From assembly GCA_035290465.1 (NCBI GenBank), contig DATDUI010000037.1:1-38703 (forward strand): DNA of 38,703 nt, read 5' to 3'. The position numbers and the translations under genes were made by a program. Under the pieces are notes generated by a model. That model had not been told where the DNA came from and searched no databases. It saw nothing but the letters and a program-made list of their open reading frames with translations. Below are positions 1,403-12,509 of this stretch, piece by piece. This DNA is from Candidatus Nanoarchaeia archaeon. Lineage in GTDB: Archaea; Nanobdellota; Nanobdellia; Pacearchaeales; GW2011-AR1. Each line of letters opens with the position of its first letter. Positions within the stretch are counted from its first letter, which is position 1.

Positions 1403-2467
1403 TTAATTAAATTTTTTTTCACCCTTTCCATTTATTAAGACCTCTTCCGAAGTTATTTTTTGAATCTTATAATTTTTATCTAAAGTTAATTTTATCTCTG
1501 CAAGAGAAATTTCTGTATCATTAATAAATGCTTTATCGAATGCACCATATTCAGCATAAATCGCATACAAAGACTCGTGCTCTAAAGAAACATAAACGAA
1601 TAAAATAATATTTTCTCCTTCTAAATTTATATCTACAATTTGATAACCTTTAATTTCTTTGACATTATAGCTATTCCCTGAAGATATAATTTTTATATTG
1701 TTTAAATCAATAATATTTTGAATTTCATTCAATAATAATTTTTCTATATTTTCTAAAGATTGATTTATCATTTTTGTACCCTTTATTTCTTCTTCAAGTT
1801 TTCCTTTCAAATCTTTAATTTCTCCTAATATTAAAAGTTCTTTTTGAGTTATCTCTAAAAATTCTTGTTTGAAATCATTATTAAAATCAGAATCGTTAGT
1901 CAAAAAGAAATATTTATCATATTTATTTAAAGAAACAAATTCTAATATAGATTCCCAAATTAGAGCATCTTTAAATCCGGAATCCACTTGATTATTATTT
2001 TTTTTATAAAATGGTTTTTGTTTTTTAATGACTTTATCTATTAATTTTGGAAAAATCTTTTCTGAAGGGTTATTAATCTTTGTTATATTATATTTACGAA
2101 GATAATTTTCTTTCTTTACATCTAAATAAGGGATATATTCTATCTTAGGTAAATTTAATATAACCCCTTGAAGTTCTTTGAACTTTTTAAAATTTAAATT
2201 TATTTTTTCTAAATCTTTAATAAAACATTCATTCTGTTGTTGTTTCAATTCTTCTAATGCTATTTCAGGTATGGCAACTTGAATGATAATCTCTTTTGAA
2301 GGTTTAAAGTTAAAATTATTAACCAGATTTTCATGAAGATTTTTATTGATCTCTAAATATTTATAATTTTTACAAAATAAATTTCCCTTGGAATAATTCC
2401 CTAAATGATTTGTATCAATAATTACAAGTATATTTTTACTTTTAACATCCATTTTATTATTTAACAA
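1403..2467 (-). CDS. PIN-like nuclease domain protein (PIN_12/DUF4935-like) with an unassigned C-terminal extension of about 150 aa
   Basis: The PIN acidic motifs occur in order: ILVIIDTNHL, IPEIALEEL, FKDALIWESI, FFLTNDSDF. The C-terminal half is coiled-coil plus beta-rich and has no motif I recognise. Confidence 0.6.
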   Translation of the reverse strand: MLNNKMDVKSKNILVIIDTNHLGNYSKGNLFCKNYKYLEINKNLHENLVNNFNFKPSKEIIIQVAIPEIALEELKQQQNECFIKDLEKINLNFKKFKELQGVILNLPKIEYIPYLDVKKENYLRKYNITKINNPSEKIFPKLIDKVIKKQKPFYKKNNNQVDSGFKDALIWESILEFVSLNKYDKYFFLTNDSDFNNDFKQEFLEITQKELLILGEIKDLKGKLEEEIKGTKMINQSLENIEKLLLNEIQNIIDLNNIKIISSGNSYNVKEIKGYQIVDINLEGENIILFVYVSLEHESLYAIYAEYGAFDKAFINDTEISLAEIKLTLDKNYKIQKITSEEVLINGKGEKKFN

Positions 2468-2535: not shown

Positions 2536-3876
2536 TTATCTTCGTCCAATAAAAGATTTATATCCCTTAATCAACTGACCCAAGTCGCCAATATGTGCAG
2601 TCGGATGTTTTCCATGCATATTCCCAACAGGAACACCAACATCAATAACCTGAATACCTTTTTGAGCAAAATATTTAGCAATAGTCCCCCCGCCACCTTT
2701 TTGAAGTTTTGAAGGTAATTCACTCATCTGATACATAACATTATTCTCCTCAAACAAATCCATTAAATAAGAAGTAATTTGATTTGATGCCTGATTCCCC
2801 CCAGATTGTTTTTCTCCGCCATTTGATTTAACAATAGCAATACCACGATTAAATCTCGTAGCAATCGTCGGATCTTGATATTGAGAATCATAACTCGTCA
2901 AAGCAATATCAACATCTGAAGAAATCATCAAAGAATTATTATAAATCCTATTCATCAAACCCAAAGAAATATCTCTCTCAGGAACAAATTCTTTACTAAG
3001 TAAATTATAAATTGCAGAATCTAAAAAAGTTGATTGTGCACCACTTAAACCAGTACTCCCAATTTCCTCCCTATCACAGCCATAAACAATTAAAGGAAAT
3101 TCCAATTCTTTTGAATCCAAAGCCGCCTTAACACTCGCAAAAACACAAATTCTATCATCATGACCATAACCATCAATTAAACCATCACCCAAAATTCTCA
3201 CTTTATCTGCCGGAACAATATACCAACTACCCCGATAAAAATCCTTTTCATCCAATCCTTTTCTTTCCAAGACTTTCAAAAAAGATTCTTTTTTACTAAA
3301 ACCAGTAATAAATTTAAACATCTCATGAGGAAATGCTTTTTTTAAAGGTAATTCATTCACTTCTTTAGAAATATGAATCCCCCTGTCAGAAAGTAAACCT
3401 TCTAAATTAAAAGTAATTTCTCCTTGTTTTTTTGTAATATGACCAATTAATTTAGCAGTATAATCAACATGCTGATGTTCCCAAATTCCCCCATAAGGTT
3501 TAGTTTTTAAGATAACTCCTTCAGTACCTTCTTCAATAGGATTTCCCCTTAAATTTAAACAAGGAGCATCAGTATGTGCCCCCAAAATAGAAACCCCATA
3601 ATCATAGCATCTTTGTTTACCCTTTAAAACAATAGCAAATTGTTTCTTATCCGCATCAGTCATATAAAACCCTCTTTTATTATCAATAAACTTCTGTTGT
3701 CCGGTAAATTCTTCTAAACCCTCTTTTTTAACCATATCAATAACTCGCCTAACCGTTAATTCAGGAGTTTTACAATAATCAAGAAATTGAACATATTCAG
3801 GGACAGTTTTTTTCCTTAATTTTACAGATTCATGTACATCCAAATTTTCTAAAGCAGATAATTTAGGGTCAATCAT
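2536..3876 (-). CDS. M18-family aminopeptidase (aspartyl-aminopeptidase-like)
   Basis: The metal-ligand motifs are typical of M18: GAHTDAPCLNLR, GHDDRICVF, DREEIGSTGLSGAQS, SSDVDIAL, NMHGKHPTAH. Confidence 0.85.
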   Translation of the reverse strand: MIDPKLSALENLDVHESVKLRKKTVPEYVQFLDYCKTPELTVRRVIDMVKKEGLEEFTGQQKFIDNKRGFYMTDADKKQFAIVLKGKQRCYDYGVSILGAHTDAPCLNLRGNPIEEGTEGVILKTKPYGGIWEHQHVDYTAKLIGHITKKQGEITFNLEGLLSDRGIHISKEVNELPLKKAFPHEMFKFITGFSKKESFLKVLERKGLDEKDFYRGSWYIVPADKVRILGDGLIDGYGHDDRICVFASVKAALDSKELEFPLIVYGCDREEIGSTGLSGAQSTFLDSAIYNLLSKEFVPERDISLGLMNRIYNNSLMISSDVDIALTSYDSQYQDPTIATRFNRGIAIVKSNGGEKQSGGNQASNQITSYLMDLFEENNVMYQMSELPSKLQKGGGGTIAKYFAQKGIQVIDVGVPVGNMHGKHPTAHIGDLGQLIKGYKSFIGRR

Positions 3877-3959: not shown

Positions 3960-5858
3960 ATGAAAAATAAGGTGATAATGTTATTCTGGGTTTTTGTAAT
4001 ATTATCAATGCTAATTTCTCCATTAATTTTAAGTGCAGAAAACGCAACTGCAGATATAACAGTTGATACAAGTAATGATATGGAATCAAAAGTTGAAAAA
4101 GCATACACATGTTTAACAAATAGTATTGACGAAAAAACTTGTACAAGTCTTTCTTTTGAAGAAAAAGTATTTTCTTTACTTGCAGTAGATAAATGTGAAT
4201 CACAGATTTTAAGCGAAGCAAAAAATGGAGAATGTTGGCCAAGTTCAGGATGTAAATTAAAATCAACAGCTCAGGCAATTTTAGCTTTAAGTAATACTGA
4301 AAGTGAAACCACAAAAGCTGAAAGTTGGTTAATTGCACAAAATATGACAGCAACAGACCTTGATTGGTTCTTAGAAATTGAAAGCCCGGAAGCAACAAGT
4401 TGTAAAATTACATACTCAGGTGCAACATACACAATTCTTATCGGAGAAGATAAAAAAATTAATACTGGAGCAGGAACTTGCTTAAGTTTATCAGAAGGAA
4501 GATGGTGGTTAAAAATTTCATCAACCTGTTTCAATCAGGATATTGACGTAAGTTGTGATAAACAATTCTTAACAACATTATTATACAAGAAAAAAACATC
4601 ATCAACAATTTATGTATCTGAAAAAGCAACTTCAGGATCAGCAGAAGGAACAACAACTGAAAGAGTGAGTTCTTACTGTTTTAAACAAGGAAGTGCTTGT
4701 GACTATGAAGGAAGTTTATGGGCAACATTAATATTAAATCACTTAAATTATGATATCACACCATACTTACCTTACTTAATAACAATGGAAGAAGACAATC
4801 AAAAATATCTTCCGCAAGTTTTCTTATATTTAGTTACAAGTCATTCTGATTATCGAAATGAATTATTATTAAAACAAAAAGATAAATATTGGGAAGAATC
4901 AGGAGATAAATTCTTTGACACTGCTTTAGCTTTATACGCATTTCAATATGAAGAGCCAATAGAAAAAACAGAATCAATTAACTGGCTTTTAGAAGTCCAA
5001 GGTAAAGACGGGTGTTGGCAAAGTAATATAAGAAATACTGCATTTATTTTATATTCAGTTTGGCCAAAAAGTTTTTACACACCAGTTGATGACGAACCAG
5101 ATACAAGTATTGATTGCACAGATGCAGGATATTTCTGTATGTCGCAAATGAATTGTAAAGGAAGTATTTTAGATGCTTATAGTTGTTCAGGGGTATCTAA
5201 ATGCTGTGATAAAGAATTTACTTTAGACCTTTGTGCAGATCAAGGCGGAGAAATTTGTAATTCAAATCAGGAATGTTTAGCCGGTTCTATTGTTGATTCA
5301 TCAGACACAAATTATGGTGAAGTCTGCTGTGTAAGTGGAAGATGTGATGTTCCAACTGAACCAGTAGAATCTGATTGTGTAGTATATGGTGGAATTTGCA
5401 GACCTAATGGTTGTGATGATGGTGAAGAATCAACAAGTGATGATTGTAGTTTTTCAACTGATTCATGTTGTGTAAAACCCACTGTAACAGAAGAGAAAAA
5501 AAGTTATTTATGGATTTGGATTTTATTGATATTAATTTTACTTGTAATTTTAGCTCTAATTTTCAAAGATAAATTAAGACCTTATTGGTATCAATTAAAA
5601 TCTAAATTTTCAAAGACTAAACCAGAAGAACCTAAACAAGGATTACCAAGGATGATGCCTCCTTCAAGAATGCCTTTTAGAGCTCCTCCAAGAAGAATGT
5701 TACCTCCTCCACAAAGTAGACCTCCAGTGAGTGGACAAAGACCACAAATAGCTAATGGGCAAAGACCTCCTTTAAAAAGAATGCCTCCTGCACCACAAAA
5801 CAAACCTTCTGGAGAAGTTGACGAAGTTCTAAAGAAATTAAAAGAAATGGGTAAATAA
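3960..5858 (+). CDS. Type-I anchored surface protein: signal peptide, alpha-alpha-toroid (prenyltransferase/terpenoid-cyclase-like) repeats, three Cys-rich modules, TM helix, proline-rich cytoplasmic tail
   Basis: The N-terminus MKNKVIMLFWVFVILSMLISPLILSA is a signal peptide. Repeats such as CWPSSGCKLKSTAQAILAL, DKFFDTALALYAF and GKDGCWQSNIRNTAFILYSVW follow. The Cys-rich block is at 5115..5471, the TM helix YLWIWILLILILLVILALIF starts at 5505, and the RMxPP-type tail is at 5619..5807. Confidence 0.75.
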   Translation: MKNKVIMLFWVFVILSMLISPLILSAENATADITVDTSNDMESKVEKAYTCLTNSIDEKTCTSLSFEEKVFSLLAVDKCESQILSEAKNGECWPSSGCKLKSTAQAILALSNTESETTKAESWLIAQNMTATDLDWFLEIESPEATSCKITYSGATYTILIGEDKKINTGAGTCLSLSEGRWWLKISSTCFNQDIDVSCDKQFLTTLLYKKKTSSTIYVSEKATSGSAEGTTTERVSSYCFKQGSACDYEGSLWATLILNHLNYDITPYLPYLITMEEDNQKYLPQVFLYLVTSHSDYRNELLLKQKDKYWEESGDKFFDTALALYAFQYEEPIEKTESINWLLEVQGKDGCWQSNIRNTAFILYSVWPKSFYTPVDDEPDTSIDCTDAGYFCMSQMNCKGSILDAYSCSGVSKCCDKEFTLDLCADQGGEICNSNQECLAGSIVDSSDTNYGEVCCVSGRCDVPTEPVESDCVVYGGICRPNGCDDGEESTSDDCSFSTDSCCVKPTVTEEKKSYLWIWILLILILLVILALIFKDKLRPYWYQLKSKFSKTKPEEPKQGLPRMMPPSRMPFRAPPRRMLPPPQSRPPVSGQRPQIANGQRPPLKRMPPAPQNKPSGEVDEVLKKLKEMGK

Positions 5859-5864
5859 GTTATT

Positions 5865-6353
5865 ATGATTTCAAATAAGTCTAATTTAGGGTTACTAAAA
5901 TTATTCACTAATATTGATATGGATATCTTGCTTGAAAATAATGATAATCCTTTTGGATCTTTAGACTTCCATTTAATCGATGAACCTCAAAATCCCTTTA
6001 AATCTGCATTTCTTTTAAATTGTGGAAATCTTTTAGATTCATCAGATTCTATTAATTATAAATATCCTTTTATAATAAAACCGAGATATTTATCCATTGA
6101 TGTTTCAGGTAAATACTTAAACCCTGTTCTTGATGAAATGATTCCATCATGGAATCAATCGAAGTATAATATAATTTTAGCTTCAATTTCACAATTACCA
6201 AGTCATTTCGTTTTATTTGAACTTTATAATGGATTTGATGAACAAAAGCAAGGTCTAACAAGAGGAAGATACTTTAAAAATAATCCAAATTTAATTAATA
6301 ATTGGGATGAAGTTCAGGATTATTGCAAAAAAAATAAAATAAAGATTTATTAG
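5865..6353 (+). CDS. Hypothetical protein; its last 38 codons plus stop lie in the left copy of the 118-bp direct repeat
   Basis: A 162-aa ORF starts 7 nt after the stop of the upstream gene. I recognise no motif in it. Confidence 0.6.
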   Translation: MISNKSNLGLLKLFTNIDMDILLENNDNPFGSLDFHLIDEPQNPFKSAFLLNCGNLLDSSDSINYKYPFIIKPRYLSIDVSGKYLNPVLDEMIPSWNQSKYNIILASISQLPSHFVLFELYNGFDEQKQGLTRGRYFKNNPNLINNWDEVQDYCKKNKIKIY

Positions 6354-6354
6354 T
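6237..6354 (+). repeat. 118-bp perfect direct repeat, left copy (3' end of ORF 5865..6353)
   Basis: A base-by-base comparison with 7806..7923 shows 118/118 identity at a constant offset of 1569. The flanking bases differ on both sides. Confidence 0.95.
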
Positions 6355-6472
6355 AATAATATTGCTAGAATTAAAAGAAATAATTCTTAAAAATTAATTG
6401 GGATAGTTTTTTCTAAATCTAAAAAGATATTGAGATACACTTCAAAATCAGTAAGTTTAAAATATCTAAACA

Positions 6473-6480
6473 TTTATAAA
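6473..6480 (+). promoter_or_regulatory. TATA box TTTATAAA for the cassette operon
   Basis: This is a consensus archaeal TATA box centred 25-26 nt upstream of ATG 6502. Confidence 0.55.
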
Positions 6481-6484
6481 TAAA

Positions 6485-6504
6485 CATACATATTTGTATG
6501 TATG
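6485..6504. promoter_or_regulatory. Inverted repeat CATACATA-n4-TATGTATG between the TATA box and the start codon, overlapping the start codon (operator-like)
   Basis: The 8-bp arms at 6485..6492 and 6497..6504 are perfectly complementary. The element sits at the predicted transcription start. Confidence 0.45.
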
Positions 6505-7107
6505 AAACATACAGAAAATAAATATAAAAATATACTAGAAAGTGGAGAAAAACAGCTGGAAATATTATTAAATCTGCTAGCAGATACAAATCAACAAATA
6601 GATATTTATGCAGTTGGGGGAACTGCAATGGTTTTGGCAGGTCATAAATCATCCACAAGAGATATAGATTTCTTCACTACCAATTCTTATCAGGAAATAA
6701 AGAATTTATTTGAAAAAATAGCTCTTAAAGAAATAGATTCGACAAAAGCATGTAATAAATGGAAATTTATGGATACTCGGTTAGACATCTTTTATTCTGA
6801 TAATGAGCAAATTTTAGGATTTCCTTTGCATGAAAAATGGAAAGAAAATTCAACGCATCTTAGAAAAATAAGAAAAGTAAACTTGTATATCTTAAATTGG
6901 ACAGATATAATTGCGACAAAACTTGCAAGAGGGGAAGAAAGAGATTTTGAAGACATAATAATTATTATTGAAAAAGAGAATCTTAATTTTGAAGAATTTA
7001 AAAAACATTTTTTAGAACAATCAGAAATTCATGCAGGTAGTTTTCAAAAAGGAAAAGATAATTTAAAATATTTGGAAAAGGAGCTAAAGAGAAATGGCAG
7101 ACTATAA
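6502..7107 (+). CDS. Minimal nucleotidyltransferase-fold protein (DUF6036 / AbiEii-like class)
   Basis: It carries IYAVGGTAMVLAGHKSSTRDIDFF (G[GS]-x9-13-DxD NTase signature). The C-terminal helix IATKLARGEERDFEDIIII is typical of this class. Confidence 0.65.
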   Translation: MKHTENKYKNILESGEKQLEILLNLLADTNQQIDIYAVGGTAMVLAGHKSSTRDIDFFTTNSYQEIKNLFEKIALKEIDSTKACNKWKFMDTRLDIFYSDNEQILGFPLHEKWKENSTHLRKIRKVNLYILNWTDIIATKLARGEERDFEDIIIIIEKENLNFEEFKKHFLEQSEIHAGSFQKGKDNLKYLEKELKRNGRL

Positions 7108-7705
7108 ATTAATTGAAGATTTAAAGAAAGAGGGTTTTATTCTTAGTTATCCTGAAATATCATCAAATGATGAAAAAATAATCTCGATATTAAAAGAGAA
7201 TGATTCCAGATTAAATTTAGCGATTCCCCTACTTCTAGATAAGCCTTTTTCATATAAAAAGATAATAGATGAAATTCCCAAAAGAAATATTTTTATTTTT
7301 AATAAAATTATCTTAATATCTTATGAAATTTTTAAAAAAGAAAAAATAGATTCATCTTTTTTGGAAAAAATAATTAAGAACTTTAAAATAAAAAATAATC
7401 TTAAGAGAAATGAATTGGAATATTTTTACGAAGAATTTAAACTTTCAAAAGAACTCAAAAAGAAGAAAACCTTTAACAAAAGAGAGTTTGAAAGTAGAGA
7501 AAATTTAAATATATTAATTAATTTAGAAAAAATATTCTCGCCTGCAAAAATAAGAATACTAAAGAATATATATGAACATAAAAAATTAACTCCTACGGAA
7601 GAAAGATATTATTATCGTTCTATTAAGCCTTTCATTGATGCAATATTGAATAATTCTGTTAGAAATTTTTTAGAAATAGTTCTAAAGAATAAAAGTCAAA
7701 GATAA
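7094..7705 (+). CDS. Hypothetical protein, translationally coupled partner of the NTase (14-nt overlap); possible C-terminal HTH
   Basis: The ORF overlaps the end of the NTase gene. It is Lys/Glu-rich and helical. The C-terminal segment KKLTPTEERYYYRSIKPFIDAI looks HTH-like, but this is tentative. Confidence 0.55.
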   Translation: MADYKLIEDLKKEGFILSYPEISSNDEKIISILKENDSRLNLAIPLLLDKPFSYKKIIDEIPKRNIFIFNKIILISYEIFKKEKIDSSFLEKIIKNFKIKNNLKRNELEYFYEEFKLSKELKKKKTFNKREFESRENLNILINLEKIFSPAKIRILKNIYEHKKLTPTEERYYYRSIKPFIDAILNNSVRNFLEIVLKNKSQR

Positions 7706-7805
7706 TAGATGCCAGTTCATTATAAACGATTTTTTGGTTTCACCTTCATGAATACAGCGAAAAGGAGGTTAGAAAAATATATAAGAAAATTACAACAGAT
7801 AAGAG

Positions 7806-7923
7806 GATGAACAAAAGCAAGGTCTAACAAGAGGAAGATACTTTAAAAATAATCCAAATTTAATTAATAATTGGGATGAAGTTCAGGATTATTGCAAAAA
7901 AAATAAAATAAAGATTTATTAGT
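7806..7923 (+). repeat. 118-bp perfect direct repeat, right copy (orphan gene tail)
   Basis: It is identical to 6237..6354. An in-frame TAA at 7800..7802 precedes it, so it has no start. Its TAG (7920..7922) lies 8 nt from the stop of the convergent gene at 7931. Confidence 0.95.
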
Positions 7924-7930
7924 TTCTATT

Positions 7931-8581
7931 TTATTCTAAAACAATATTTTCTAAAGAAGAATGATTTTGTTCTGCTTTTTCAATTTGTGGTTGATAATTA
8001 GTTTCTATTTCTTCTTTATTTGGATTGAATGCATATATCCCTGACATTAAACCAATTGAACCTGCTACTAATGTTGTAGCAAGAATTTTTTTCATTTTAG
8101 GCGTTTGTTTTTTTACAAATTGTGGTATTCTTTCTGTTTCTTTTAATCCTGCTAAATCCCTAAAAGAATCAATAGTATATCCTAAAGATCCTCCGGAAAG
8201 GAAAGCTAAACCAATTGAAAAAGCTGTACCTAATGCTATTTCTTTTAAATCTCTTGCACCGGAAGCATAATAAAATGCTGGTGTAATAGCAATATTGTAC
8301 AGTCCCGCATAAATTGAATCGTGTAAATATTTCATCTTTTCTGTAGCTTCATTGTTTATATTAAAATAATCTCTCGAAATATCTAAACCCTTTGTGAATA
8401 ATCTTCCAAATCCAATCTAAGTTAACCCTGTAGCTAAAATTCTGGCATTAATTGACGTTTCATTTGACATATCCGAACCAATTGTTTCAATAACACTGAA
8501 TATCGGATTTGTTAATGTTAATAAAGCAGTACTATCTACAAGATGATAATTTAAATTTTCAATAATCTTATTTTTATTCAT
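7931..8581 (-). pseudogene. AlaE-like (L-alanine exporter family-like) small membrane protein interrupted by an in-frame TAG at 8417..8419
   Basis: ATG 8581 has a TATA box 25-26 nt upstream. It opens 54 codons (MNKNKIIENLNYHLVDSTALLTLTNPIFSVIETIGSDMSNETSINARILATGLT) that run in frame through one TAG into the listed ORF 7931..8335. The combined sequence resembles the AlaE/YgaW layout as I recall it. Confidence 0.5.
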
Positions 8582-8780: not shown

Positions 8781-10115
8781 ATGAAAAAAGTGGTTATATC
8801 ATTAATCTTAGCTTTAATTCTTTTGCCAAATATTTTGGGAGTAAGTTTTGAAATGAATGAAGAATTTAAACAAGGTGAAACATTAATAGCAAAAATTTCA
8901 GGTAATTTCCTGACCCCAATTTTAAAAGAAAATATTAATTTTTATCGAGGTCATACACGTGTAGCAGTAAATTATGATTTAACAAAAATAGATGATATTT
9001 ATTATCTTTCTGCTTCGTTATTAAGCAAAGCTCCAAATAATTATTCAATAATCATTGATAATGTAGAATATATGCAAGGGGCAACAGTAAAAACAGATGA
9101 CATTGTAAAAAATTTTACGGTTACAGAAGGTATTGCAGATTTTTCAATAACTCCCGGATTTATTATCGCAACAGATACATTTGAAGTAACTTTGCAAAAT
9201 TTATTAGATGCTCCGTCAACAATTAATATTAAAATCGAAAAAACTCAGGAAGAAACAAGTCAGGGTTTTTTCGCGTCTTTATTTGGAACCACAACTGAAA
9301 CACAGGATTATTCAATTTCATTAAAATCCGGAGAAATTAGAAGAGTAAAATTTAATGTTAATAATATAACTGCTTCAGCATTGCATACTATAACTTTTTC
9401 TTCAACTAATTTAAAATATGAATTGCCTGTTTATGTTTATGCAACAAATAAAACAACAGCATCAAACGAAAATCAAATAACTCGTTTTGGCATTGAACCA
9501 ATAATTATGGAAATATCAATGACGACAAATTCAAATAAAACTTATGTATTTTATTTTCGTAATACCGGAAATACAACGATAAAAAATATTACTTTGTCAT
9601 TATCTGATTCTTTGAAACCATATGCTTTATTCTCTAATGAAAGTATTGAAGAAGTAGAAAAAAATTCAAGCTATAAATTTTATGTAAATTTTTCATCTAA
9701 AGATAATGAAGAAATAATTAATGGAAGTATTAGAGCAAGAATTGTGAATGAAACCGGAAATACTTATGCATATTCAGAGATTCTATTAAAAATAGTAAAA
9801 GATTATATCCCTTTGGATAATGAAACTAATGAATCAACTGATGAGCCAATTCCTTCAATTTCAAAAACTTGTGCAGAACTCGAAGGAATAATTTGTAAAG
9901 CTGATGAAGAATGCAATGGTGAAATTGTTAATGCAAAAGATGATAAATGTTGCATGAATGAATGTACTGAAGAAAGCAATTCATTAGGGAAATTAATTGG
10001 CTGGGTAATTATTTTATGCATTGTTGGATTTTTAGTTTGGTTTTTTAAAACAAAATATCGTGGAGCACATAAAGAAATAGATTTAGTTGAAATTTCTAAA
10101 TGGAAGAGAATTTGA
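8781..10115 (+). CDS. Surface glycoprotein candidate: signal peptide, beta-rich ectodomain with many N-x-S/T sequons, one Cys-rich stalk module, C-terminal TM anchor
   Basis: The signal peptide is MKKVVISLILALILLPNILG. I count about 14 N-x-S/T sequons. The Cys module is CAELEGIICKADEECNGEIVNAKDDKCCMNEC (9870..9965), and the TM helix is LIGWVIILCIVGFLVWFF. Confidence 0.75.
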   Translation: MKKVVISLILALILLPNILGVSFEMNEEFKQGETLIAKISGNFLTPILKENINFYRGHTRVAVNYDLTKIDDIYYLSASLLSKAPNNYSIIIDNVEYMQGATVKTDDIVKNFTVTEGIADFSITPGFIIATDTFEVTLQNLLDAPSTINIKIEKTQEETSQGFFASLFGTTTETQDYSISLKSGEIRRVKFNVNNITASALHTITFSSTNLKYELPVYVYATNKTTASNENQITRFGIEPIIMEISMTTNSNKTYVFYFRNTGNTTIKNITLSLSDSLKPYALFSNESIEEVEKNSSYKFYVNFSSKDNEEIINGSIRARIVNETGNTYAYSEILLKIVKDYIPLDNETNESTDEPIPSISKTCAELEGIICKADEECNGEIVNAKDDKCCMNECTEESNSLGKLIGWVIILCIVGFLVWFFKTKYRGAHKEIDLVEISKWKRI

Positions 10116-10572: not shown

Positions 10573-11828
10573 AAGATATATTAATTCTTCAAAAAAGAGA
10601 ATTAGAGAATAAGTTAAAAGAAAAATACATAAACAGAAGAGATAAATTAGAAGGATTAGATTCAGACATAATAAAAGTTATTATTGGTCCAAGAAGAGCA
10701 GGAAAGTCTTTTTTTTCAATACATCTTTTAAACAAAATTGGGGATTTTGGCTATGTTAACTTTGATGATGAAAATCTAATTAATGTCAAAAATTATGATG
10801 AAATAATTACTGCAATGAATTCTATTTATAAAAATCCTAAATATGTTTTCTTTGATGAAATTCAAAATTTACCAAACTGGGAATTATTTGTAAATAGATT
10901 GCAAAGAGGGAGCACTAATTTAATTATAACGGGTAGCAATTCAAAACTTCTTAGCAAAGAATTAGCAACACACTTAACAGGGAGGCATTTTTTAACACAT
11001 ATACTCCCATTTTCATTTAAAGAATTCATTGATTTAGATAAAAAAGAATTAACAACTATTGAAATCAAAAATAAGTTTGAAGATTATATCTTTCATGGAG
11101 GTTATCCTGAACCTCTGATTAAAAATCTAGACTTTAAAGAATATCTCTCAACTCTTTTCAATTCAGTCATATATAAAGATATTATTAATAGATATAAGAT
11201 AAGAGCTAATAAAGAAATGGAAAATCTATCTTTTTATCTCTTATCAAATATTGCAAATGAATATTCTTATAATTCCCTTACAAAGGTAACCGATATAAAG
11301 AGTTCACATACAATACAAAAATATATGGGATACTTGGAAGAGTCTTTTATTTTCTTTAGTTTAAACAGATTTTCTTATAAGGTTAAAGAGCAAATTTCCT
11401 CAAATAAGAAGATTTATTGCATAGATAATGGGTTTATACAGGCAAAAGCATTTAAATTAAGTCCGAATATTGGAAAACTTTATGAGAATATTGTAGCAAT
11501 TGAATTGAAAAGAAGAGAATATGAAAAAGAAATTGAAGTCTATTATTGGAAAAATGTTCAAAATGAAGAAGTAGATTTTTTGATTAAAAAAGGAACTTTA
11601 GTTAAACAGCTTATTCAGGTTTGTTCTGACATTAAAAATTCTGAAACAAAAAATAGAGAAATTAGAGCTTTAATTAAAGCTGGTGAAGATTTGAAATGCA
11701 AAGACCTTTTGATGATTACAGATGATTATGAGGGTGAAGAAAAAACTGAATGGTTTGATAAGAAGGCAATAATAAAGTTTATCCCTGCTTGGAAATGGCT
11801 TTTGGAAAAAAATTCTAAGAAGAAGTAA
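10557..11828 (+). CDS. AAA+ ATPase of the AAA_14 + DUF4143 type
   Basis: Walker A is IIGPRRAGKS and Walker B is VFFDEIQ. The C-terminal part (FYLLSNIANEYSYNSL ... IYCIDNGF) is typical of the DUF4143 architecture. Confidence 0.85.
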   Translation: MSQEIKDILILQKRELENKLKEKYINRRDKLEGLDSDIIKVIIGPRRAGKSFFSIHLLNKIGDFGYVNFDDENLINVKNYDEIITAMNSIYKNPKYVFFDEIQNLPNWELFVNRLQRGSTNLIITGSNSKLLSKELATHLTGRHFLTHILPFSFKEFIDLDKKELTTIEIKNKFEDYIFHGGYPEPLIKNLDFKEYLSTLFNSVIYKDIINRYKIRANKEMENLSFYLLSNIANEYSYNSLTKVTDIKSSHTIQKYMGYLEESFIFFSLNRFSYKVKEQISSNKKIYCIDNGFIQAKAFKLSPNIGKLYENIVAIELKRREYEKEIEVYYWKNVQNEEVDFLIKKGTLVKQLIQVCSDIKNSETKNREIRALIKAGEDLKCKDLLMITDDYEGEEKTEWFDKKAIIKFIPAWKWLLEKNSKKK

Positions 11829-11927: not shown

Positions 11928-12509
11928 ATGATAACAAAAAATGAAAGCAAAGTTTTGAGAATGCTATTAATGGCATTTGGAGAAGAATATTCAATTAACA
12001 GAATAGCAAAAGTTTGTGGCCTTTCACCAAATGGAGCATTAAAGACATTAAGAAAATTTGAATCTCAAGGAATTTTAACAGTTAAGAAAATTGCAAATAT
12101 TAATTCTTACAAAATCAATTTTTCAAATAACAAAACAAAAAACATACTCGAACTTGCACTAATCCCAGAAATCCCTGAAAAAATAAAATACCGATATGAT
12201 GATTTGGGACCTCTAAAAAAAATCACTGAAATAGGAATAATCTTTGGGTCTTACATAACAGATAAACAAAAACCGACGGATATAGATTTGTTTTTTGTTC
12301 TGGATAAAAAAAATTTCAATGAATACAAAACTTTAAGCAAAAAAATTTATTTTACAATGCCTTTGAAAGTGCAGGATGTTCTTCAGACAAAAAAAGATTT
12401 AAAAGAAAATATTTTAAAGAAAGATAAAGTAATAATTGAAATATTCCGAAAAGGAATTATTTTATGGGGCTATGATAAAATAATAAAATTTTTTGAAAAT
12501 GACAGATAA
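11928..12509 (+). CDS. wHTH + minimal nucleotidyltransferase (MNT-type partner of HEPN)
   Basis: I trimmed the listed ORF 11835 to the first ATG. The N-terminus ESKVLRMLL..YSINRIAKVCGLSPNGALKTLRKFESQGIL is wHTH-like. The NTase motif is IIFGSYITDKQKPTDIDLFF. Confidence 0.75.
   Translation: MITKNESKVLRMLLMAFGEEYSINRIAKVCGLSPNGALKTLRKFESQGILTVKKIANINSYKINFSNNKTKNILELALIPEIPEKIKYRYDDLGPLKKITEIGIIFGSYITDKQKPTDIDLFFVLDKKNFNEYKTLSKKIYFTMPLKVQDVLQTKKDLKENILKKDKVIIEIFRKGIILWGYDKIIKFFENDR

Follow-up and report, generated by a model that had tools for sequence, protein, structure and literature searches.

How does a small gene cassette that encodes no mobility function come to lie between two perfect copies of the tail of its neighbour gene? 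We asked this of a 38,703-nt stretch of DNA from a Candidatus Nanoarchaeia archaeon (assembly GCA_035290465.1, contig DATDUI010000037.1, positions 1 to 38,703 of the forward strand; hereafter the window), in which a 118-bp direct repeat brackets a two-gene cassette, encoding a nucleotidyltransferase (NTase) and a partner protein, just downstream of an open reading frame (ORF) that we call ORF162. The movement of toxin–antitoxin and defence cassettes without mobility genes is a long-standing gap, and the sole scar described for it, a long target duplication, is known from no more than a handful of restriction–modification cases in bacteria, its mechanism having been open since 2000. Here we report that such a scar is common at toxin–antitoxin-type cassettes in DPANN archaea, where it was found at about one quarter of the members of one family compared with 0.4% of controls. 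As to the window itself, we put at about even the chance that a host-mediated homologous insertion, either one-ended or of the Campbell type, left the 118-bp long target duplication.

Positions 6237-6354 match 7806-7923 without a single difference over 118 bp, at an offset of 1569, and in a self-comparison with BLAST they were the sole long repeat across the window, present in two copies (E = 5e-56). The left copy begins at a codon boundary of ORF162 and takes in the last 38 codons of this gene, its TAG stop and a single nucleotide beyond it. The right copy is an orphan that has no start codon, is closed on its upstream side by an in-frame TAA (7800-7802) and is untranslatable; 8 nt lie between its TAG (7920-7922) and the stop of a convergent 134-aa gene (7931). 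Between the copies lie 1451 bp with a TATA box, a palindrome and two overlapping ORFs. Sequence comparison confirmed everything that a preliminary description of this DNA, made from the letters alone, had stated about its sequence, and it was borne out that the duplicated tail leaves the upstream gene intact. The absence of an integrase or transposase, also claimed there, was confirmed with Pfam: among 40 ORFs of the window (including nearly all of those of at least 100 aa; the scan was confined to the window within the genome) none contained an integrase, transposase or reverse transcriptase domain. The features of the locus are as follows.

5865..6353, plus strand: ORF162, the target gene with the duplicated 3' tail (ORF call; no known domain)
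6237..6354, plus strand: left (attached) repeat copy (118-bp identity)
6355..6460, plus strand: left insert flank (not conserved with other cassette copies)
6473..6504, plus strand: cassette promoter/operator (sequence, conserved in relatives)
6502..7107, plus strand: DUF6036 minimal nucleotidyltransferase (MNT) of the Pol-beta fold, AbiEii/MNT-related (Pfam PF19502)
7094..7705, plus strand: 203-aa all-alpha partner, presumed cognate toxin or antitoxin/regulator (conserved linkage)
7706..7805, plus strand: right insert flank, ending at the non-homologous junction 7805/7806 (not conserved)
7806..7923, plus strand: right (orphan) copy of the ORF162 tail (118-bp identity)
7931..8335, minus strand: convergent 134-aa gene (ORF call; no domain)

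Both sides of the insertion contain oligo-T tracts. In the left insert flank (6355-6460), a T6 tract (6407-6412) located 3' of the ORF162 stop is a candidate archaeal oligo-T terminator. The orphan copy contains A8, which reads as T8 on the minus strand (7896-7903), 28-35 nt past the stop of the convergent 134-aa gene; because archaeal termination occurs at oligo-T, this T8 is probably the terminator of that gene.

Could the structure be a product of assembly, in which a 1.57-kb circle that exists separately, or a repeat that had been collapsed, was misjoined into the chromosome? Repeats can mislead assemblers, and our material consisted of contigs only, not of reads. However, the exact ORF162 protein is encoded on 23 contigs, and in each of the 10 that were compared at the DNA level we found both perfect copies together with the cassette, and the convergent 134-aa gene adjoining the orphan copy. 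These 10 contigs derive from at least nine independently assembled JGI and ENA samples, are named in three styles (k141_, MEGAHIT-style; NODE_, SPAdes-style; and scaffold_) and include strains that differ elsewhere. In addition, if the final k-mer of the k141_ contigs was 141 nt, as the name implies, then one k-mer spans the 118-nt repeat. Recurrence in 10 contigs rules out an assembly artefact, and the probability that we leave to this explanation is negligible.

Is the arrangement peculiar to this locus? The preliminary description had proposed looking for the cassette at other sites, flanked by tails of other genes. A scan of GTDB genomes with an alignment of the NTase yielded 50 loci, which were analysed by self-comparison and with ORF maps. 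Direct repeats of at least 40 nt and at least 80% identity, located within 2.5 kb, bracketed 10 of 37 NTase-pair modules (27%), as opposed to 2 of 540 control segments of the same size from the same loci (0.4%). The repeats in these 10 DPANN loci are host-specific and 48-125 nt long; at locus L070 a bracketing repeat of 50 nt was overlooked by the automated screen. At five loci, including the window, the repeats around the NTase pair are gene tails, so that the cassette was indeed found beside the tails of other genes. The arrangement of the window recurs with the tail of UppP/BacA (L054, 53 nt) and with the tail plus 33 nt of a 116-aa gene (L061), and its mirror image with the tails of an FtsX-permease gene (L070, 50 nt, 100% identity) and a DUF7343 gene (L037, 91 nt, 82%). 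At three further loci (L043, L045 and L056) the brackets are wider or intergenic, and the segments inside them include the NTase pair; these repeats, too, are host sequences without relation to the others.

The same scar was present at cassettes of other kinds. In one DPANN metagenome-assembled genome (MAG), a 133-nt repeat with 95% identity, the tail of a 116-aa HVO_A0114-family gene, brackets a ParE/antitoxin pair immediately upstream of the NTase pair (L015). A tail repeat of CysRS brackets a Bro-N cassette that neighbours the NTase pair (L044), and tail repeats bracket a Fic/DOC cassette (L054) and an AAA_14/DUF4143 cassette (L031). An MNT-HEPN pair is bracketed by the duplicated 5' head of a divergent gene together with the promoter region (L036; the head duplications are at 7737-7888 / 9617-9768 and 8153-8236 / 9824-9907). 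The cassettes were found in either orientation relative to the duplicated gene. The 50 GTDB loci contain no empty/filled pairs, because homology between the loci is confined to the cassette. A separate observation concerns L022/L048, L028 and L030, where one cassette after another, the NTase pair among them, is set off from the next by intergenic repeats present in several copies (73-94% identity). They are located at 2935-3235, 9805-9941, 11226-11289 and 14659-14871 in L022/L048, at 897-964, 3964-4047 and 5360-5443 in L028, where the unit contains two short hairpins (z = -3.2), and at 97-159, 967-1055, 3526-3614 and 5940-6021 in L030; L022 contains GC-rich palindromes within an AT-rich genome. 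These repeats may represent a different phenomenon and could be terminator, repetitive extragenic palindromic (REP) or attC-like elements.

We then asked what the repeats have in common. Across the loci they are unrelated gene tails of 48-145 nt, several of them from housekeeping genes, and no shared core or motif was found among them. The two copies of a repeat are not always identical, and the way in which they differ is informative. In nine pairs of attached and orphan copies, the differences fall on codon positions 1, 2 and 3 in the numbers 32, 14 and 51, and 38 of the changed codons are synonymous versus 40 non-synonymous, where only ∼21% synonymous would be expected (P ∼5e-6). None of the orphan copies contains a premature stop ahead of the stop region of the gene itself. 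At two loci the stop is in the same position in both copies but the codon is different (TAA/TGA in L015, 2157 versus 2843; TAG/TAA in L070, 9241 versus 7945). In the L044 orphan the last four codons differ (12280-12291 versus 11243-11254). Orphan tails with changed stop or end codons look as if they derive from other alleles of the gene. The diverged copies thus differ like functional alleles, which excludes a simple in situ duplication followed by neutral decay of the orphan; this divergence fits a donor tail imported together with the cassette, or a later allelic replacement.

The ends of the repeats, too, show a pattern. In 7 of the 11 tail cases the cassette-side end lies at most 4 nt from the stop codon, while in the others it is at +33 to +78 or at -12. 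The stop codon would then be the place where homology between donor and recipient ends, and such a boundary would be unexpected for random staggered breaks. Breaks at random positions that leave both neighbour genes intact would mostly be expected to straddle the tiny spacer. No junction microhomology was evident. When folded as single-stranded DNA, neither the repeat nor either insert flank did better than shuffled sequences (z = -0.23, -0.18 and +0.71), and Rfam had no match in the window or in four related loci.

Next, we considered the cassette. A TATA-like box, TTTATAAATA (6473-6482), precedes an 8-bp inverted repeat with a 4-nt spacer, CATACATA-TTTG-TATGTATG (6485-6504), that overlaps the ATG. 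Both the box and the palindrome are conserved in the closest relative of the cassette (L014), and a B recognition element (BRE)/TATA-like motif is present in ∼20 other loci, in several of them with a palindrome. The two ORFs (6502-7107 and 7094-7705) overlap by 14 nt. The first matches PF19502 (DUF6036) with E = 1.7e-13, DUF2204 with 7e-5 and, weakly, AbiEii in Pfam, as well as AbiEii in PADLOC (6e-5). Its 21 homologues are all DPANN-type, and 18 homologues share the region of the invariant GG..D.D motif. The 203-aa partner has 18 homologues, located on the same contigs as the NTase homologues, and the partner gene always follows the NTase gene directly, either adjacent to it or overlapping it. 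As a pair the two genes are conserved in Woese-, Pace- and Nanoarchaeota MAGs of the DPANN archaea, frequently with defence genes around them. For the partner we found no match in Pfam, NCBIfam or PADLOC and no assignment to the AbiEi or HEPN families; its AlphaFold2 model (predicted local distance difference test score, pLDDT, 78) consists of helices throughout and had no fold match in the PDB. Judged from its sequence, the pair looks like a putative toxin–antitoxin module, whose two genes appear to share one autoregulated promoter. A gene of ∼393 aa for a PDDEXK_1 (Cas4/RecB-like) nuclease recurs in several genomes directly beside the NTase pair, on one side or the other (90-1268 in L026, 4773-5954 in L078 and 11764-12960 in L017); it is not present in the window.

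The preliminary description had regarded the insert as a very small self-contained mobile cassette. This was not upheld: the unit that is conserved between genomes consists only of ∼35 nt of promoter and the two ORFs, ∼1.22 kb in nucleotide homology, the flanks are unrelated, and cassettes of other kinds are scarred alike. No terminal motifs or terminal repeats are conserved between the genomes at the cassette termini. The segments 6355-6460 and 7706-7805, which belong to the insert and lie outside the conserved unit, show no similarity to L014 (upstream of ∼6461 and in the 3' flank, respectively) and had no nucleotide or translated match in any compared locus, and no relatives of a 33-aa ORF at 7709-7810 were found. 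Relatives of the cassette were absent from the viruses of IMG/VR and the plasmids of PLSDB. Nor was the same cassette ever seen at different sites within a population: both the cluster P0034 (8 contigs) and the NTase of the window (23 contigs) have a constant context.

What did the site look like before the insertion? Homologues of ORF162 form one cluster only (P0001, 94% identical), which belongs to a co-occurring sister lineage (L011-L013 and L019-L021). There the repeat sequence is present in a single copy, as the tail of the same gene. Synteny between the sister lineage (L011-L013) and the window stops at 6357, 4 nt past the ORF162 stop; 3' of ORF162 the sister lineage has a convergent gene for seryl-tRNA synthetase (SerRS), and no cassette, orphan tail or 134-aa gene. 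Upstream of ORF162 the two lineages diverge by 3.8%. Within the gene there are 0 differences in 233 nt of the 5' part and 21 in 257 nt of the 3' part (9 synonymous and 10 non-synonymous codon changes). Because the 5' part is identical and the 3' part 8% diverged, the sequence indicates a recombination breakpoint near 6098 inside ORF162, which by this comparison is the last core gene before a variable region.

Variation among the strains of the window has a similar character. Two contigs (L006 and L009) differ from the window by ∼3% in 4163-5795, inside a gene for a 632-aa cysteine-rich surface protein, and carry a different island to the right. The block 5796-8095, which contains ORF162, the cassette and the orphan tail, shows zero differences in the four contigs that were mapped (L003, L005, L006 and L009). 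The patchiness of the strain polymorphisms suggests that recombination was mosaic, or else that the surface protein is under diversifying selection and the cassette block has recently swept; since the polymorphisms form a patchy mosaic, homologous recombination would be active in these strains. Strains also vary on the right-hand side of the cassette: L006 departs from the window after 8791, and in L010 ∼10109 is followed by ∼26601, with the omission of ∼16.5 kb containing AAA_14/DUF4143 and Polbeta+HEPN modules and glycosyltransferase genes. The toxin–antitoxin-like modules of the window other than the cassette are PIN_12, AAA_14/DUF4143, Polbeta+HEPN, AbiEii and one NTP_transf_2 gene. The PIN_12 gene (1403-2452, minus strand) lies in a strain-specific insertion (1344-2510) that is absent from L006, L009 and L011-L013 and has replaced the last ∼9 codons of an upstream primase-like, intein-containing gene (257-1369); this insertion was checked for a second tail duplication, and no flanking duplication was found. 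A contig that is apparently the same ENA contig as the window (L004, k141_376356) differs from it at two positions, 3368 and 4667, where the window has G and L004 has A.

An empty site, in which ORF162 would be followed directly by the 134-aa gene (7924 onward), was not present among the 10 contigs compared at the DNA level, all of which are filled; the remaining 13 contigs with the identical protein were not sequence-checked and may include one. Neither an empty site nor a circle was found via the sole homologue cluster, in a metagenome scan with the repeat core or in a scan of IMG/VR, and beyond filled sites the metagenome scan returned only loci of the sister lineage with a different downstream gene. 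Absence of the empty site from databases does not mean that none ever existed, and it is plausible that the right junction is the ancestral one.

How, then, could the cassette have arrived? The insertion would have placed the 1451-bp segment just 3' of the ORF162 stop, at the edge of a strain-variable island. Donor DNA carrying the cassette beside an allelic copy of the ORF162 tail would have recombined with the tail of the resident gene, an exchange anchored on one side only, in the conserved coding end of ORF162. This could have happened by a Campbell-type single crossover of a circularised fragment containing the tail and the cassette, or by homologous invasion in the tail coupled with an illegitimate join at 7805/7806. 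Either route would yield the order gene tail, cassette, tail copy, and in the product both ORF162 and the 3' region native to the convergent 134-aa gene would be preserved. Direct repeats on both sides would normally lead to loss of the insert by recombination, while an addictive cargo would penalise this; for this reason the scar may be seen mainly around units of the toxin–antitoxin and restriction–modification type. A stabilising role of toxin–antitoxin cassettes is known (cited in PMC9668308). The recombination route, the retention by addiction and the terminator role of the orphan are what we infer from these comparisons. The machinery is most likely that of the host, and the cassette most likely does not move itself, because unrelated cassettes (ParE, Fic, AAA_14/DUF4143 and Bro-N, and MNT-HEPN in the head version) bear the same scar. 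Of the two origins that the preliminary description had offered for the duplication, the Campbell-type or one-ended homologous insertion fits best, whereas the att-type origin lost ground, as the repeats share no core, the window has no integrase and the repeat has no attC-like fold.

Several points weigh against homologous insertion. As neither an empty site nor a circle was found, the direction of the change is inferred rather than observed, and the 100% identity of the copies in the window gives no sign that one of them came from a donor. The allele-like divergence at other loci could have arisen by allelic replacement after a de novo duplication. Moreover, a one-ended homologous route presupposes a donor in which the cassette already adjoined that gene, and does not explain how the cassette first entered each new locus. 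The enrichment at this pair (27% versus 0.4%) could mean that the pair aids its own insertion, and the toxin–antitoxin activity on which retention would depend is putative, being predicted from sequence.

In a rival account the cassette was inserted de novo and the long target-site duplication is a true one, in which no donor allele of the tail is involved and nicks or breaks 50-150 nt apart, or a template switch of replication to the cassette and back upstream, are filled in. In its favour, the two copies match perfectly in the window and in L070. The cassette also occurs at many loci that are unrelated to one another, and at each of them a different host sequence is duplicated, so that duplication may be intrinsic to the primary insertion; Furuta et al. 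present the restriction–modification cases in this way (PMC2853133). It accounts poorly for the clustering of repeat ends at the stop codon (7/11), for the lack of evident junction microhomology and for the diverged pairs that look like alleles under purifying selection, even if later allelic replacement could mimic the last of these. Overall we consider a de novo duplication unlikely. The same A-B-A' structure would formally result if the ORF162 tail had been duplicated in tandem, or a tandem paralogue had existed, and homologous exchange with a diverged genome, or a deletion, had then left the cassette in between, which corresponds to pathway (ii) proposed for partial duplications of rRNA (PMC3457768). 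Allele- or paralogue-like divergence fits two copies that were once functional, and the L015 orphan retains an ATG-started ORF of 51 aa. However, a series of steps would have to be repeated at more than 10 loci independently, we saw no tandem paralogues of the target genes, and neither the minimal selfish nature of the cargo nor the survival of just 50-150 nt of the second copy would be explained; a tandem origin is therefore improbable in our view.

The DUF6036 NTase and its partner might themselves be a new autonomous element that drives its own insertion with a long duplication and perhaps mobilises neighbouring cassettes. The enrichment is strong and specific (10/37 versus 2/540), the boundaries of the unit are discrete and tight, and an enzyme of the Pol-beta fold with an all-helical partner could in principle act on DNA ends. 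Nevertheless, unrelated cassettes without the domains of this pair carry the same scar, the unit lacks terminal repeats and conserved ends, it was never seen at two sites in one population or in the viral and plasmid collections (IMG/VR and PLSDB), and the family resembles the NTases of AbiEii/MNT toxin–antitoxin systems; we regard an autonomous element as very improbable. A wider proposal, that DPANN archaea possess a dedicated recombinase-free route that places minimal selfish cassettes at the 3' ends of genes and duplicates a tail of 50-150 nt, strikes us as quite unlikely. In its strongest form, if true, the NTase and the helical partner would drive the insertion, for example by filling long staggered breaks, and the pair would be a new class of autonomous mobile element of ∼1.2 kb. 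Alternatively, a recombinase acting in trans could have integrated the cassette site-specifically, so that the repeats would be attL and attR of a recombinase-less, cis-mobilisable element. Elements that integrate at the 3' ends of genes, such as e14 in icd and the cis-mobilisable elements (CIMEs), typically duplicate that end and so restore the gene, and the search for recombinases was confined to the window. Against this, the window has no integrase, the repeats at the other loci are unrelated tails of 48-145 nt without a shared core or motif, and the cassettes can point either way with respect to the target gene, which makes integration in trans highly improbable.

Three further candidates were rejected. 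An attC/integron cassette does not fit because the folds are no better than those of shuffled sequences, there is no integrase domain and the window contains no other repeat family; by eye there was no GTTRRRY/RYYYAAC pair in the right insert flank (7708-7805), the left flank being judged by folding only. A diversity-generating retroelement (template repeat/variable repeat) was dismissed because no reverse transcriptase was found in the window, the copies there are identical and the mismatches in L015 are third-position changes that involve several base types and are not adenine-specific. A DNA transposon or insertion sequence would have a transposase, terminal inverted repeats and a short duplication of fixed length, none of which was found, the duplications being 48-145 nt.

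By itself the locus in the window is a fixed scar and only modestly interesting; it gains in interest because the arrangement recurs across DPANN genomes. What is new, besides the frequency of the scar, is that the duplicated sequence often comes from the coding end of a housekeeping gene and extends to its stop, and that the copies are allele-like. Ends at stop codons and allele-like copies provide testable handles for distinguishing one-ended homologous capture from the fill-in of staggered breaks. The structure also suggests that ultra-compact genomes tolerate the insertion since the duplication spares both the C-terminus of the gene and the 3' signals of its neighbour. Orphan gene tails could mark the recent gain of cassettes in metagenome-assembled genomes.

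Finally, we asked how the locus compares with known systems. Archaeal integron cassettes and clusters of attC sites lacking integrases (CALINs), including those of Nanoarchaeota, often carry toxin–antitoxin genes (Ghaly et al. 2022, PMC9668308). As in the window, the cassettes are small, are found in DPANN MAGs and mostly have no integrase nearby, and the repeats that separate them in arrays are similar within a genome. However, their repeats are folded attC sites with R''/R' boxes, whereas the repeat of the window is a coding tail that has neither this fold nor these boxes and occurs only twice, and the cassette in the window carries its own promoter. With the AbiE/MNT modules the cassette shares a minimal NTase of the Pol-beta fold, a tight operon of two overlapping genes, a palindromic operator and a location in defence islands. 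It differs from them in that the partner has no AbiEi, HEPN or known domain, the NTase gene comes first and the activity is putative.

Elements that integrate at the 3' end of a gene offer a superficial likeness. The element e14 and phage 21 insert in the 3' end of icd and carry a replacement tail, and the CIMEs of streptococci are cis-mobilisable elements without a recombinase of their own. As in the window, the tail is duplicated, the gene remains intact and an orphan tail lies at the far end. In those systems there is a site-specific integrase and a core, whereas the window has no integrase or core, and many unrelated targets are used. Campbell insertion-duplication and homology-facilitated illegitimate recombination are known from naturally transformable bacteria (PMC3240628). 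For both, one region of homology suffices and the element needs no recombinase of its own; the Campbell product has the order homologous segment, foreign DNA, homologous segment, and homology-facilitated illegitimate recombination combines a homologous join on one side with an illegitimate join on the other. Both have been demonstrated experimentally in bacteria, not in archaea, and the anchors of 50-150 bp seen here are short. Homology-facilitated illegitimate recombination, moreover, usually deletes recipient DNA rather than duplicating it.

This leaves the insertion with long target duplication of restriction–modification gene complexes, which Nobusato et al. are also said to have reported in 2000 (Gene 259:99). 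These insertions, mostly in naturally competent bacteria, involve no mobility genes and produce long, variable duplications of unique target sequence, ∼45-420 bp in the cases listed (Furuta et al. 2010, PMC2853133). The inserted units are small and selfish, acting by post-segregational killing. Some of the repeats overlap the 3' ends of genes, and repeats flank such cassettes far more often than average genes (PMC2853133). The mechanism is unknown, and no archaeal case passed the screen (PMC2853133, PMC3874152). A full-text search of a limited collection of the literature returned no report of this scar at toxin–antitoxin cassettes or in DPANN. The window resembles these cases in that its repeat is 118 bp long, above the 30 bp used as a criterion, and consists of unique host sequence, and in that its insert of 1451 bp, well below 20 kb, has no mobility gene. 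It differs in that no empty site was found for this locus, in its DPANN archaeal host, in a target that usually consists of the coding end of a gene up to the stop, in the allele-like nature of the copies and in its cargo, which is the DUF6036 NTase and its partner. Because this cargo is not a restriction–modification system, the window represents a variant of this kind of insertion that lies outside the original set.

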